A DNA stretch of 20,572 nucleotides from Hormoscilla sp. (lineage in GTDB: Bacteria; Cyanobacteriota; Cyanobacteriia; Cyanobacteriales; Desertifilaceae). Made by a program: the position numbers and the translations under genes. The notes beneath the pieces are model-generated. The model ran no database searches. It worked only from the letters and a program-made list of their open reading frames with translations, and was not told the origin of the DNA. Below are positions 8,804 through 17,700 of this stretch, piece after piece. Location: NCBI GenBank assembly GCA_051439505.1, contig JBFRWI010000150.1, positions 1-20,572 on the forward strand. The letters are read 5' to 3'. How positions within the stretch are numbered: the stretch's first letter is position 1; each line of letters opens with the position of its first letter.

Positions 8804-8999
8804 GATCTTACACCATTCTTAATTATCAATTAGCCTCATAGCCCGCCGTGGGTTCAAACCCACGGCTAATAGCTAAAGTCGGTTGAAAACCGACTGAAAG
8901 CCTTGTATTGTATAGAAAGGATTTATTCTCCTTTGGTAGACTTGGTATTTTCGCCTCTATTTTTAATTAGAGGCTGGTTATTGCGACTGGTGTAATATG
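8804..8999. mobile_element. REPIN/MITE-like element containing inverted REP hairpins
   Basis: Ends GATCTTACACCA (8804-8815) and TGGTGTAATATG (8988-8999) are 10/12 inverted. An intact double-hairpin REP lies at 8839-8895 and a degenerate inverted counterpart (GCCTCTA..TAGAGGC) near 8963-8974. Confidence 0.55.
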
Positions 9000-9011: not shown

Positions 9012-9219
9012 CAATACTTTTCGGTTAATGACTTGTCATTGCGAGGGGGGAAACCCAAACCGATAATTTAGGGATCGCCGCCTTTATCCCCCCTCATACG
9101 GGACGGGGGGATTGCTTCGGGGGGGGGGGTAACTCAATTGGTGCAGAAGTTAATCGCGGAGTACCCCCCCCCTCGCAATGACAAATATTCCCGCCGCTGT
9201 GTTTAACCGAGAAGTATTG
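9012..9219. mobile_element. MITE, 208 bp, 17-bp TIRs, 10-bp target-site duplication
   Basis: CAATACTTTTCGGTTAA (9012-9028) vs TTAACCGAGAAGTATTG (9203-9219), 16/17 inverted. Flanks AGTTCTAAGC (9002-9011) and AGTTCTACGC (9220-9229). No ORF inside. Confidence 0.85.
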
Positions 9220-13463: not shown

Positions 13464-13756
13464 AGGGGGGTAATAATTCTCTCTCTTCGTTGTTAGCCCG
13501 CCGGGGGTTCAAACCCCCGGCTAATAGCTAAAGTCAGTTTAAACTGACTAATAAAATTTGATAAAAAATGCTGCAAAAAATGTTATCGGAAAGGTATTTG
13601 CTATGAAAAGTATTGGCGTAGGGGGGGAATAATTCTCTCTCTTCGTTGTTAGCCCGCCGGGGGTTCAAACCCCCGGCTAATAGCTAAATTCAGTTAAAAC
13701 TGACTAATAAAACTTGGAGTCAATGCTGCTATAAATGTTCATCTGTAATGTATTTT
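13464..13756 (+). repeat. Tandem duplication (156-bp period) of a REP-like double-hairpin unit
   Basis: AATAATTCTCTCTCTTCGTTGTTAGCCCGCCGGGGGTTCAAACCCCCGGCTAATAGCTAAA starts at 13472 and 13628. Its core matches 8839-8895. Confidence 0.9.
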
Positions 13757-14390: not shown

Positions 14391-14433
14391 GGGGACTTCG
14401 GGCAATGTCTTAGATATCAAGGGTTTGGGGCTA

Positions 14434-14505
14434 TGGGTGACCAGGGATTCGAACCCTGAGCCAATGGATTAAGAGTCCAGTGCTCTACCGTTGAGCTAGT
14501 CACCC
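14434..14505 (-). tRNA. trnK: tRNA-Lys(CTT)
   Basis: Minus strand GGGTGAC TA GCTC AACGGTA GAGC A CTGGA CT-CTT-AA TCCAT TGGCT CAGGG TTCGAAT CCCTG GTCACCC A. Full cloverleaf, with one mismatch at the top of the anticodon stem; CCA not encoded. Confidence 0.96.
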
Positions 14506-14548
14506 ACTAAAGTTATTGTAGCTTACTTAAAACAGTATAACCACATTT

Positions 14549-14720
14549 TGCCAGGTTGGGAGTGAAAAATTTTTCCCTCTGGTCGCCGGTAGTGTTACCG
14601 GTAGGATACGATCGCCCGGTCCGAAAGGCGCGAGTGCTTCTGTAGAGGAGACAGCCCACCTGAACGCTACCGGTAGTAGACAACCTGTCAATTGGCCTCA
14701 GTCACTGGTCACTGGTCACA
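14549..14720 (+). ncRNA. ssrS: Probable 6S RNA (ssaA/ssrS), diverged; ends approximate
   Basis: 12-bp stem GCCGGTAGTGTT (14585-14596) with AACGCTACCGGT (14663-14674), branched apical part with CC-GAAA-GG, and 3' bubble strand ACAACCTGTCAATTGGCC. These blocks resemble cyanobacterial 6S RNA as I recall it. TATAAC at 14536-14541 may be its -10. Confidence 0.7.
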
Positions 14721-14771
14721 GAAGAGCGCCCGATCGATTACGGTATAGAATAAACAAAACTACTACTAAGG

Positions 14772-16535
14772 GTGAATGTCATGCTGGAAACAACGCTGCG
14801 GAATCGCTATTACATCAGCAAAAAGCTGGGAAACGGGGGCACCTACCTAGCTGAAGACCGGGAGTTACCTGGTGGAAATGTTCAGTGTGTGGTCAAAAAC
14901 TTGAAGCTAGTAAATCCAGAACCGGCAACTTTGTCAGCTGCGAGAGATTTTTTTGACAAAGAAGCACAAATTCTCTACAAGTTAGGCAACAACAGCGAAG
15001 AAATTCCTCGACTTTTTGCCCACTTTGAGGAAAATGAGGAATTTTATCTCGTCCGGGAATTCGTTGATGGACATTCTCTGAGGCAAGAACTCACAGAGGG
15101 CAAGCCATTGAGTGAGAATGAGGTGGAGAAACTGTTGCAGGAGATCCTGGAAGCCTTGGTATTTGTCCATGAGAACAATGTTATCCACGGAAATATCAAT
15201 CCCAAAAATTTAATCCGTCGCCAAAAAGATAGCAAGATTGTCCTGATTAACTTTCATAAGATTAAAGAAATCACTAATTTAACCTTTAATAATCCGGGGC
15301 AAGGAATGACGATTGTTATGAATATTGTTCGCGGTTATATGCCGGTCGAACAAGGCATGGGGATGTCAAAGTTATGCAGCGATGTCTATGCGGTGGGAAT
15401 GATTGGGATTCAAGCCCTCACAGGGGTAAGGCCCGATGGATTACAAAAAAATGATAATACAGGTGGGGTCATTTGGCGCGAGCGGGCTAAGGTGAGCAAT
15501 GGGCTAGCAGACATTTTAGACAAAATGGTGAGCTATGATTTTAGCCAGCGTTACCAGGATGCAGCCGAAGCATTAGAGGCGTGGCAATCTCAATCCACTA
15601 TCACAATACCAAAGGGAAAGGGACAGTCGGTAAATGTGATGCTGGGAAAAACATTGCAGAATCGCTATGACATTATTAAACCCCTGGGAAGCGGGGGATT
15701 TGGCGATACTTACCTGGCGAAAGACCGTGATTTCCCCGAAGACGACCAGTGTGTGGTCAAGCGCTTGAAGCTAACAGAGTCAGATGCGGAAGTTGTATCG
15801 GTTGCCAAACGCCTTTTCCGGAAAGAAGCAGATGTTCTGTACAAGTTAGGCAACCACGACCAAATTCCCCGATTTTTCGACTACTTTGAGGAAAATGGGG
15901 AATTTTATATCGTCCAGGAATTCGTTGACGGTCACGATCTGAGTCAAGAGATCGCCCCCGGGAAGCAGTTGAGTGAGAAAGAGGTGGTGAAACTGTTGCA
16001 GGAGATCCTGGAAGTATTGGTATTTGTCCATGAAAACGATGTCATCCACCGAGATATCAAGCCCAAAAATTTACTCCGTCGCCAAAGAGATGATAAGATT
16101 GTCATGATTGACTTTGGGGCAGTTAAAGAAATCACTACTTTAAGCGTTAATGCTCAAGGACAAGCGAGGACGATCGCGATTGGGACTGGTGGCTATATGC
16201 CGGCTGAACAAGCCTTGGGGATGCCAAAATTATGCAGCGATGTCTATGCGGTGGGAATGATTGGCATTCAAGCCCTGACAGGGGTAAATCCTCGGAATTT
16301 ACGAAAAGATGACAATACCGGTGAAGTCATTTGGCGCGATCGGGCAAAAGTGAGCAATAAGCTAGCAGGTGTTTTAGACAAAATGGTGCGGGATCATTTT
16401 ATCGGGCGTTACCAGGATGCCGCCGAGGCGTTGCAAGTGCTGAAACAGCGATATCCCCAATCATCACAATCACTACTGGGTCAGGCTTTAACATTACCAA
16501 AAATTGCCTTGATGGCAATGCGAAATAGATTCTGA
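14772..16535 (+). CDS. Tandem Hanks-type Ser/Thr kinase: N-terminal pseudokinase plus intact C-terminal kinase
   Basis: Two homologous domains, the first 286 codons long. Domain 2 has GSGGFG, VVK, KEA, HRDIKPKN, DFG, GTGGYMPAE and SDVYAVG. Domain 1 has GNGG---T, HGNINPKN and NFH. Start GTG 14772 or ATG 14781. Confidence 0.93.
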   Translation: MNVMLETTLRNRYYISKKLGNGGTYLAEDRELPGGNVQCVVKNLKLVNPEPATLSAARDFFDKEAQILYKLGNNSEEIPRLFAHFEENEEFYLVREFVDGHSLRQELTEGKPLSENEVEKLLQEILEALVFVHENNVIHGNINPKNLIRRQKDSKIVLINFHKIKEITNLTFNNPGQGMTIVMNIVRGYMPVEQGMGMSKLCSDVYAVGMIGIQALTGVRPDGLQKNDNTGGVIWRERAKVSNGLADILDKMVSYDFSQRYQDAAEALEAWQSQSTITIPKGKGQSVNVMLGKTLQNRYDIIKPLGSGGFGDTYLAKDRDFPEDDQCVVKRLKLTESDAEVVSVAKRLFRKEADVLYKLGNHDQIPRFFDYFEENGEFYIVQEFVDGHDLSQEIAPGKQLSEKEVVKLLQEILEVLVFVHENDVIHRDIKPKNLLRRQRDDKIVMIDFGAVKEITTLSVNAQGQARTIAIGTGGYMPAEQALGMPKLCSDVYAVGMIGIQALTGVNPRNLRKDDNTGEVIWRDRAKVSNKLAGVLDKMVRDHFIGRYQDAAEALQVLKQRYPQSSQSLLGQALTLPKIALMAMRNRF

Positions 16536-16596
16536 AAATCAGAAAAAGCTGATAGCCGTGTTTTTCAAATTGATGTGGTACAGAATAATCGCCTAC

Positions 16597-16687
16597 TTGT
16601 CATTGCGAAGGGGGGGGGTAGATTAAGAAGTCACTTATGAAAAATAGAGTTACTCCCCCCCCGAAGCAATCTCCGACAGCAGATTGC
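16597..16687 (+). repeat. GTCATTGCGA...GAAGCAATC palindromic repeat with G-tract/C-tract insert
   Basis: TTGTCATTGCGAA-G9-TA-N26-GAGTTACT-C8-GAAGCAATC. The same architecture occurs on the minus strand at 9110-9184. Ends in the hairpin GCAATCT..AGATTGC. Confidence 0.8.
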
Positions 16688-16743: not shown

Positions 16744-17334
16744 ATGACAAGCACGCAAACAAGCACCGGCTTAGGCGGGACAGGAGCGGTGGCGATCGCC
16801 TCATTGCCAGACTCCCCAGAACAGAGTAAACATAAACCCGGAATCAAGGAATTGCTGGCCCAGTTGCAAGACGCGATCGCATCGGAGTCGAACCTAGACG
16901 AAGAGGATAAAGAGAAGGCGCTGAAACATTTGAATAACCTGGCAACAGTTGTAAAAAAACCGGGGGTAAACGGCCAAAATGGCACCGGCTTAGCCAATTC
17001 AACCCTCGATCGAACTGAAATAGAATCCCTAGAAAAGTTGTACAGCTTCAAGGAACCCCAAGCGGTCTATGATTTTCTGGAAGAATATCCATTTCTGGTT
17101 CCCCTCTTGCAAGAAGCCCAGGTCGAGATTCGCAAACATTTTCCCAACTCACGGCTGTTTCTGAAATACGTCACAGATCCGGAAATTTATAACCCGGAAC
17201 TAGCAATCTATATTACCAGACCGGAAAATATGGACGTGGAAGAGAGGATCGATCTCCTGGAACGCCTTGATGATGATTGGTGGTTGGATGCTGAACCCCG
17301 ATCGCAAGGAAAAATGTTTATCAATTTTGGATAG
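16744..17334 (+). CDS. Hypothetical two-domain protein, putative antitoxin/partner of the downstream HEPN protein
   Basis: Good RBS; stop is 3 nt before the HEPN ATG. N-terminal helical segment PGIKELLAQLQDAI..EDKEKAL and an acidic C-terminal domain (FLEEYPFLVPLL..TDPE..LDDDWWLD). No G-S-x-D-x-D MNT signature seen. Confidence 0.75.
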   Translation: MTSTQTSTGLGGTGAVAIASLPDSPEQSKHKPGIKELLAQLQDAIASESNLDEEDKEKALKHLNNLATVVKKPGVNGQNGTGLANSTLDRTEIESLEKLYSFKEPQAVYDFLEEYPFLVPLLQEAQVEIRKHFPNSRLFLKYVTDPEIYNPELAIYITRPENMDVEERIDLLERLDDDWWLDAEPRSQGKMFINFG

Positions 17335-17337
17335 AAA

Positions 17338-17700
17338 ATGAGTTTTGATTGGTCGCAATATTTGCATCTAGCGCAAGAACTTGCAGAAGAAACTACAGAT
17401 GAAGCCAAAATGCGATCGGCTATTAGTCGCGCCTATTATGCTGCTTTCATCAAGGCCCGAAACTATTTGCAAGAACGGGAAGGTTTGACAATTCCCACCC
17501 AAAACAGCCACCAGTATGTTATCAACCAATTTAAGGATAGCAAAGAAAAAGTGCGTGAAAAGATAGGTAACAGGTTGAAACGCCTGCGAGATTATCGTAA
17601 TCAAGCTGATTATGATAATACATTTCCCGACTTAGCTGAGAGGACTAAGGAGTCGTTAACCTTGGGTAGGCGGATTATTTCTGGGTTGGGTAATCTCTGA
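17338..17700 (+). CDS. HEPN domain protein (UPF0332-like), putative toxin
   Basis: RSAISRAYYAAF helix, SH motif and LRDYRNQADY (RxxADY); 120 aa, predicted all-helical. Confidence 0.85.
   Translation: MSFDWSQYLHLAQELAEETTDEAKMRSAISRAYYAAFIKARNYLQEREGLTIPTQNSHQYVINQFKDSKEKVREKIGNRLKRLRDYRNQADYDNTFPDLAERTKESLTLGRRIISGLGNL

Follow-up and report, generated by a model that had tools for sequence, protein, structure and literature searches.

The window analyzed here, a 20,572-nucleotide stretch of Hormoscilla sp. DNA read on its forward strand and cyanobacterial in both its genes and their relatives, contains a gene whose product carries two protein kinase domains in tandem (Table 1). An earlier reading made from the sequence only (hereafter the sequence-only reading) placed the open reading frame at 14772-16535; this frame is indeed open and encodes both kinase domains, but its likely start is the ATG at 14781, which agrees with the 584-aa database gene call, rather than 14772. 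Pfam Pkinase (PF00069) matches the 584-aa protein in two stretches at 191.8 bits against a cut-off of 31.7, and the Pfam matches are to kinase-clan families only. The two domains are 65% identical in amino acids and 77% in nucleotides over 269 aligned codons. Their spacing was measured at 858 to 864 nt, and the protein has no transmembrane (TM)-like segment, its highest 19-residue hydropathy value being 1.38. Apart from small corrections, the coordinates and motifs of the sequence-only reading were all confirmed. The assembly is real at this locus, because contig pieces of sequencing run X2, which is possibly the source sample, match it with 0 differences, and one of these pieces (15377-15752) spans the junction.

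Table 1. Coordinates of the tandem kinase gene, its domains, and its motifs in window numbering
Feature	Coordinates	Strand	Remarks
Upstream leader	14641..14780	+	In common with the congeners' single kinase-TM-TPR gene; by position, domain 1 appears as the continuation of that gene
Tandem pseudokinase-kinase gene, 584 aa, soluble	14781..16535	+	Protein P0001; alternative GTG start 14772
Domain 1, pseudokinase (aa 1-270)	14781..15590	+	Motif loss; predicted full kinase fold
Gly-loop GNGGT	14829..14843	+	9-nt in-frame deletion (3 codons) versus GSGGFGDT
Likely gene-conversion tract, codons 114-240 of domain 1	15120..15500	+	Nearer domain 2 than congener kinase
Catalytic loop HGNINPKN	15186..15212	+	HRDIKPKN in domain 2; Asp to Asn also in X4, X10, P0002
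NFH replacing DFG	15249..15257	+	Kept in X4; P0002 has DFF
IVR replacing GTG/GTP, end of activation segment	15324..15332	+	From alignment with domain 2
35-nt block, alphaF motif LCSDVYAVGMIG	15372..15406	+	Identical to 16230-16264
Linker, 16 aa	15591..15638	+	pLDDT <50 at aa 273-282
Domain 2, kinase, begins with its own ATG	15639..16448	+	All motifs intact
C-terminal tail, 28 aa, no TM	16449..16535	+	Low-confidence helix, mildly amphipathic

The 5′ part of the linker resembles the DNA that follows the kinase domain in the congener gene, and its last 10 nt resemble the sequence preceding the tandem gene's own start. The ATG of domain 2 (window 15629-15641) lies in a context homologous to the gene start, so that separate translation of domain 2 is possible. 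Homology of the tail behind domain 2 to the juxtamembrane segment of the congener protein was considered and rejected, since 7% of 500 shuffles score equally high. The tandem gene encodes the only two-domain protein among the 69 kinase-matching open reading frames of the genome, and its first domain is among only 3 of 70 kinase domains failing the Lys/Asp/Asp triad. Two single-domain pseudokinases were noted in the same genome (G000, C222:26438-27856 and C148:20251-22146, both on the reverse strand), with the motifs HCN and HRA/GFG.

A tRNA-Lys(CTT) gene at 14433-14506 on the reverse strand is divergent from the kinase gene. Downstream, at 16744-17700, there is a 196-aa open reading frame matching no family and, 3 nt farther on, a HEPN-domain gene; this pair is conserved in congeners and looks like a two-gene module of the toxin-antitoxin type. 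The window also has three copies of a palindromic intergenic repeat (8839-8888, 13464-13560, and 13620-13716), the latter two forming a 97-nt tandem that is 96% alike, and another small family of repeats occupies 9033-9187 and 16594-16674. Scans for promoters and terminators yielded counts at chance level.

Domain 2 retains GSGGFG, VVK, HRDIKPKN at 16047, DFG at 16110, and GT. Domain 1 keeps the β3 Lys (K39, 14895-14897) and the αC Glu (E61, 14961-14963), and its losses at the Gly-loop (three codons), at HRDIK (now HGNIN), and at DFG (now NFH) were all confirmed, as was the retention of the Lys and the Glu. The fourth loss that the sequence-only reading listed, GT to VR before GYMP, needs adjustment: the segment is changed, but GTG aligns to IVR, one residue off. 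The Gly-loop deletion is also present in P0002, the one full ortholog found (584 aa; 2006 matches, 5618 candidates), and the strains X4, X10, and X11 have no indel relative to the window there. With both Asp residues missing, domain 1 fits the sequence definition of a pseudokinase, and P0002 fits it through absence of the HRD Asp; this definition, taken from the accessible part of PMC12599244, is the lack of at least one of the β3 Lys, the HRD Asp, and the DFG Asp.

Within the 42 nt around the catalytic loop (15183-15224), the halves indeed differ at exactly four bases (15189, 15192, 15200, and 15213), all of them non-synonymous and affecting R, D, K, and L/I. Note that we rejected this four-of-four count as evidence by itself because it is not significant (p 0.19-0.38). 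The 35-nt block is likewise an exact, non-extendable identity. We rejected it as a sign of recent duplication, since it covers the most conserved kinase motif and the single-domain congeners match it at 31-32 of 35 bases.

To judge whether the loss is concentrated on catalytic positions, we used a reference of 163 homologous domains, 156 of which have HRD and DFG, with 59 remaining after removal of those more than 80% alike. At a conservation of at least 90%, 75 positions were taken as conserved, 12 of them named beforehand as catalytic and 63 others; conservation of the HRD and DFG columns is built in, as only domains with these motifs, which are also textbook invariants of kinases, were admitted to the reference. 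Domain 1 is changed at 6 of the 12 catalytic positions and at 2 of the 63 others (p 1.1e-4), and the corresponding counts for domain 1 of P0002 are 4/12 and 1/63 (p 0.002). Domain 2 of either protein has no catalytic position changed and three of the 63 others. The contrast between the two sets stays at conservation thresholds of 80% and 70%. Thus, the proposed concentration of changes on catalytic residues exceeds chance across the whole of domain 1.

A rough neutral model with branch dS values of 0.22-0.27 predicts that 40-46% of residues should have changed. The catalytic set of domain 1 (6/12) fits this expectation, whereas two or fewer changes among 63 structural positions have a probability of about 1e-11 under neutral decay. 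Because the structural set defies the neutral model and the catalytic set fits it, the pattern reads as purifying selection on the fold together with a relaxed active site: at the level of sequence, the fold of domain 1 is evidently kept by selection, and its active site looks merely relaxed. The sequence-only reading had argued for selection of a folded but dead domain over random decay. Selection over random decay is supported, given the retained structural positions and an omega below 1, but selection of the catalytic changes themselves is not, in that these fit neutral relaxation. The pseudokinase-kinase tandem is real and selected, and its function is something that we infer.

Variation among strains was assessed with four sequencing runs (X2, X4, X10, and X11) of 17 listed. 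Overlapping contigs of X4 tile the gene, those of X11 bridge the linker, and X10 provides pieces of the two halves that are not linked; the tandem itself is present in the window strain, X4, X11, and P0002. A joint in X11 that "goes back 861" is tentatively read as a graph cycle caused by a word common to the halves, not as a third domain. Counts and omega values refer to domain 1 only (14799-15374), wherein X4 differs from the window at 12 non-synonymous and 8 synonymous sites, X10 (to 15213) at 9 and 9, and X11 (14802-14937) at 0 and 3. The union of the three holds 16 non-synonymous and 15 synonymous differences with no stop and no indel, although single differences may be errors given contig depths of 4-6. 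The resulting omega is 0.30 (p 0.001) if no transition bias is assumed and 0.44 (p 0.018) with kappa set to 4, with an overall range, depending on that bias, of 0.30-0.50 (p 0.001-0.04); for X4 alone, omega is not significant at kappa of 2 or more. Frameshifts or scattered changes in domain 1 of related strains, which would have spoken for random decay, were not encountered: P0002, X4, X10, and X11 are free of frameshifts and stops, and omega is below 1.

The HGN/NFH pattern recurs only in part among orthologs. X4 keeps HGN and NFH, and X10 has HGNIN, but the pattern is not fixed, since domain 1 of P0002 reads HRNIT, DFF, and LVH beside an intact domain 2. Between P0002 and the window protein, 34 of the 270 residues of domain 1 are different, against 21 of the 270 of domain 2 (Fisher about 0.07). 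Differences in the N-lobe number 9/95 and 3/95, respectively, and the active site plus activation segment is the most variable part of domain 1, with 13 of 57 residues differing versus 5 in domain 2. At residues 114/401 and 149/436, the same substitutions occur in both halves of the ortholog, which hints weakly that the domains still undergo gene conversion with each other. No ortholog was present among 48 metagenome and 80 genome loci that are related, the best match being 56%.

The order of genes at the locus (pentapeptide gene, Uma2, tRNA-Lys, kinase, 196-aa open reading frame, HEPN) is the same in the window strain and in all four of the other genomes of the genus, G001-G004 (loci L011-L014 correspond to G001, G004, G003, and G002, respectively). 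Each of these four has a single, motif-intact kinase followed by a TM-like segment, with TPR repeats in G001 and G004. This single kinase is damaged in 4/4 congeners: G003 and G004 have a frameshift in common, G002 has a premature stop, and G001 has a frameshift close to the C terminus; in G002, G003, and G004, the breaks fall inside the kinase while HRD and DFG are intact, which is opposite to the pattern of domain 1. P0007 represents an intact version of the single kinase-TM-TPR gene. Domain 1 shares with the congener kinase gene the upstream leader, the 5′ end, and the post-kinase sequence, and by these marks it is to be regarded as the continuation of that gene.

The halves are separated by a dS of 0.48 and differ from the G001 kinase by dS values of 0.44 and 0.54, whereas four flanking genes yield only 0.12-0.22 against the congener. 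The excess of the value between halves over those of the flanks indicates that the duplication is older than the divergence of the window strain from these congeners. Therefore, the claim of a recent duplication is not supported, given this dS, a tandem common to several strains, and the uninformative 35-nt block. The segment 15120-15500 is nearer to domain 2 than to the congener kinase, to a degree reached in 0 of 300 permutations when all informative sites are used and with p 0.07 on synonymous sites only, which suggests that codons 114-240 of domain 1 may have undergone gene conversion with domain 2. A tree places domain 1, domain 2, and the congener kinase in one clade (98/91), wherein the order is unsettled and the halves are sisters at 72/18. 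Among 13 family relatives, no other copy of domain 2 was found except a same-locus remnant of its 3′ end in G002 (133 nt, 93% identical, behind a multicopy insertion), and no stand-alone domain-2 gene turned up among 1128 short candidates, whose best match was 66%. An origin by internal duplication is possible, as is one by fusion of two tandem genes.

Compared with congeners, the kinase locus is a divergent cassette, with 79% identity inside and about 87-96% in most flanking blocks, and congeners carry insertions here. The insertion in G002 has 65 matches in that genome. Its first bases resemble what we take to be a group II intron motif, but Rfam found nothing and the identification as such an intron was dropped. 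In G004, an IS630-like DDE_3 transposase adjoins the tRNA, and G003 and G004 have additional copies of the 196-aa open reading frame.

A search of 1.84 billion representatives, which ranked multi-domain kinases first, led to a scan of 156 proteins (146 new representatives and 10 earlier ones, including the window protein and P0002). Two to three kinase domains are present in 52 of these 156 relatives, a proportion that is no frequency because the search ranking favors tandems. Even so, the view of the architecture as a singular case has to be given up, since such tandems are common in the Pkn2-type family. According to motif calls on automatic alignments, the 52 comprise 20 kinase-kinase, 13 kinase-pseudokinase, 11 pseudokinase-kinase, and 5 pseudokinase-pseudokinase proteins along with 3 triples. 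Both triads are kept in 20 of the 52, and thus the death of one domain is not required. The HRD Asp is kept in 5 of the 38 tandem pseudo-domains and lost in 33, being replaced by Asn in 28 of the 33 and by Gly in none; the change of HRD to H[RGC]N recurs among tandem kinases. The pseudo state accounts for 19 changes on a FastTree tree, or at least 7 when well-supported branches are counted, and the trees give the other tandems origins separate from that of the window tandem.

Those tandems that come with organism names are all cyanobacterial (Floridanema, Symploca, Spirulina, and Xenococcaceae). Long tails predominate, and a TM-like segment is frequent in them; minimal soluble forms such as the window protein are few, and only P0202 (75%) has halves that resemble each other more closely. 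Altogether, the two- and three-domain Pkn2-type kinases collected (P0194-P0319, P0003-P0008, and P0035) make up about 50 clusters, many with TM and TPR tails and in all kinase/pseudokinase orders. With considerable doubt, we propose that cyanobacteria possess an undescribed polyphyletic class of tandem kinases, parallel to Janus kinases (JAKs) and plant tandem kinases, that would have arisen by repeated duplication of Pkn2 domains with one copy killed mostly by an Asp-to-Asn change. The window gene would then be a young example, with its sister allele still in congeners and the receptor's sensor replaced by a dead kinase copy as regulatory input.

An AlphaFold2 model built from a 44-sequence tandem alignment has both domains folded (mean pLDDT 89.5), and pLDDT in domain 1 is mostly above 88 except in the activation segment. 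The model contains no fixed inter-domain arrangement (pTM 0.54), its linker being disordered with pLDDT below 50. A PDB sequence search returned 10 matches, with StkP nearest and no cyanobacterial kinase structure among them.

Our tentative preference is that domain 1, tethered to domain 2 and itself non-catalytic, acts as its dimer partner and activates it allosterically. One reason is that the sister allele is a membrane receptor kinase, of a class for which activation through N-lobe dimers has been proposed; another is that the matching N-lobe residues are still present in domain 1, namely R9, Y10, and D-x-x-L-P, which in PknB numbering we take to be the back face. A further reason is that kinase-dead PknB stimulates wild-type PknB through the back-to-back N-lobe interface, an effect abolished by L33D according to the available portion of 10.64898/2026.10.08.757607; the back-to-back model is set out, and termed debated, in the accessible text of PMC13434768. 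Once the gene had been duplicated internally, or two tandem copies had fused, its TM segment and TPR sensor would have been lost, and a covalently linked partner would replace ligand-driven dimerization, the usual proposed route of activation for bacterial Hanks receptor kinases. The fold and the N-lobe surface would be all that such a partner requires, which would have left its active site free to drift, with the Asp-to-Asn change tolerated because it would preserve the shape of the loop. Against activation by domain 1 stand the lack of a predicted inter-domain arrangement, the Phe of domain 2 at the Leu33-like site, where domain 1 has L29, the more variable N-lobe of domain 1 between orthologs, its somewhat faster evolution overall, and the 20 tandems in which both triads are intact. 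Back-to-back activation in cyanobacterial Pkn2 kinases was not found reported in the portions of the literature available.

On the unlikely side, though explaining every sequence statistic as well as activation does, is the possibility that domain 1 does nothing for domain 2 and is a folded passenger, in frame behind the promoter, from which selection removes only fusion-destroying changes (stops, frameshifts, and misfolding). The retained frame and core, an active site drifting at the neutral rate, the lack of a predicted interface, the faster change of domain 1 relative to domain 2, and the dispensability of the single-domain allele in 3/4 congeners all agree with it. However, a useless 270-aa repeat that is 77% identical to its neighbor should delete easily, all the more as domain 2 could start from an ATG of its own in a similar context. 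Nevertheless, the tandem is retained in the window strain, X4, X11, and P0002, the stand-alone domain-2 gene is missing from the short candidates, and pseudo-domains arose repeatedly in other tandems. That domain 1 is simply the decaying half of a recent duplication is very improbable and largely refuted: the halves are among the closest of the 52 tandems and the motif losses of the window strain exceed those of P0002 by two residues, but 61 of 63 conserved non-catalytic positions are kept, omega is below 1, and the dS between halves is too far along for this.

A JAK-like arrangement, wherein domain 1 would pack against domain 2 and hold a sensor-less kinase in the off state until a signal releases it, seems rather improbable to us. 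A kinase deprived of its TM-TPR input would need another brake, and the pseudokinase-kinase order recurs in 11/52 tandems, but no interface is predicted and no releasing input was identified. JH2 is regulated through its ATP site, whereas that of domain 1 is damaged by the Gly-loop deletion and NFH. The order of domains does match JAK JH2-JH1, PglW, and some plant tandem kinases, as given in the available portions of PMC8761531 and PMC12839542. It is a distant prospect that domain 1 is a sensor or decoy: resembling the ancestral kinase, it would be bound or altered by the protein of a partner, phage, or competitor and would then set off domain 2, in the manner suggested for the tandem kinase receptors of plants. 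The variability of its active site and activation segment would suit this role but also fits relaxation; the locus is a divergent cassette with insertions in congeners and adjoins a HEPN gene, but neither downstream gene matches PADLOC. PADLOC PD-T4-6 profiles match strongly, but over the generic kinase domains only and with no cut-off given, and the curated cut-offs for defense kinases are missed (MAD6, 223.5 versus 460; PglW, 85 versus 990).

Arguments about how pseudokinases arise and why they are retained mostly draw on very old pairs. The window protein, in contrast, has halves that are 65% identical, it is small and soluble, and a single-domain sister allele is at the same locus, so that activator, inhibitor, and passenger are directly separable by domain-deletion and in-trans assays, and the roughly 50 other tandem clusters show bacteria taking this evolutionary step independently. 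The window tandem is older and less unique than first thought, and it is a good, tractable model for pseudokinase birth.

JAKs carry FERM and SH2 domains and are tyrosine kinases; the window protein has neither domain, is of the Ser/Thr type, has halves that are 65% identical, and lacks a predicted interface. Both place a pseudokinase directly N-terminal to an active kinase (PMC8761531, as available in part). The same partial source describes plant tandem kinase proteins (RPG1, WTK1-3), likewise soluble with two kinase domains of which one is a pseudokinase, as polyphyletic, formed by duplication or fusion with one copy decaying; the window domains, in contrast, are bacterial Pkn2-type, share only the kinase fold with these proteins, and have cyanobacterial kinases, not plant receptor-like kinases, as their nearest relatives. 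In bacteria, PglW of type 2 BREX/Pgl and some DndF proteins have a pseudokinase followed by an active Hanks kinase (PMC12839542 and PMC4365076, in the parts accessible). The window protein has no NERD nuclease or C-terminal sensory half, measures 584 aa versus 1400-1600 aa, and scores 85.3 bits with the PglW profile NF033442 (cut-off 990); no BREX genes occur in the window, where the neighbors are Uma2, tRNA-Lys, and HEPN. It also falls below the cut-off for the MADS kinase MAD6 (NF047741, mad operon; 223.5 of 460 bits). The bacterial pseudokinase family CP1 is defined by a fused COG3899 ATPase domain (PMC12599244, part), for which this protein has neither room nor a Pfam match, and ActPs1-3, DLHK, and GLW all lack the VAIK Lys (10.1101/2025.01.12.632604, part), whereas domain 1 retains K39.

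Although pseudokinase-kinase tandems are already known from JAKs, plant tandem kinase proteins, and PglW, no description of cyanobacterial Pkn2 tandems was found in the available portions of the literature, including PMC2176072, PMC11863333, 10.1101/2025.01.12.632604, and PMC12599244; an earlier mention elsewhere is possible. The terms "tandem" and "two kinase" have 0 occurrences in the main texts of PMC2176072 and PMC11863333, and the accessible part of PMC7517822 holds nothing relevant to such tandems. The Pkinase match, the intact motifs of domain 2, and a tree position nested among cyanobacterial kinases identify the window protein as a cyanobacterial Pkn2/Hanks-type Ser/Thr kinase. Members of this group without the catalytic Asp are noted in the available text of PMC2176072 and PMC11863333; SpkE, of the same family, is degenerate but single-domain, whereas the window protein is a tandem, and because SpkE was later reported to be active in the sources as available, total inactivity of domain 1 should not be assumed. 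PknB-type back-to-back receptor kinases have the Hanks fold as well, and the congener allele is a kinase-TM receptor as they are (10.64898/2026.10.08.757607 and PMC13434768, both in part). The window protein differs from PknB in having neither TM nor PASTA and in a partner that is covalently linked and, judged by its motifs, naturally dead.
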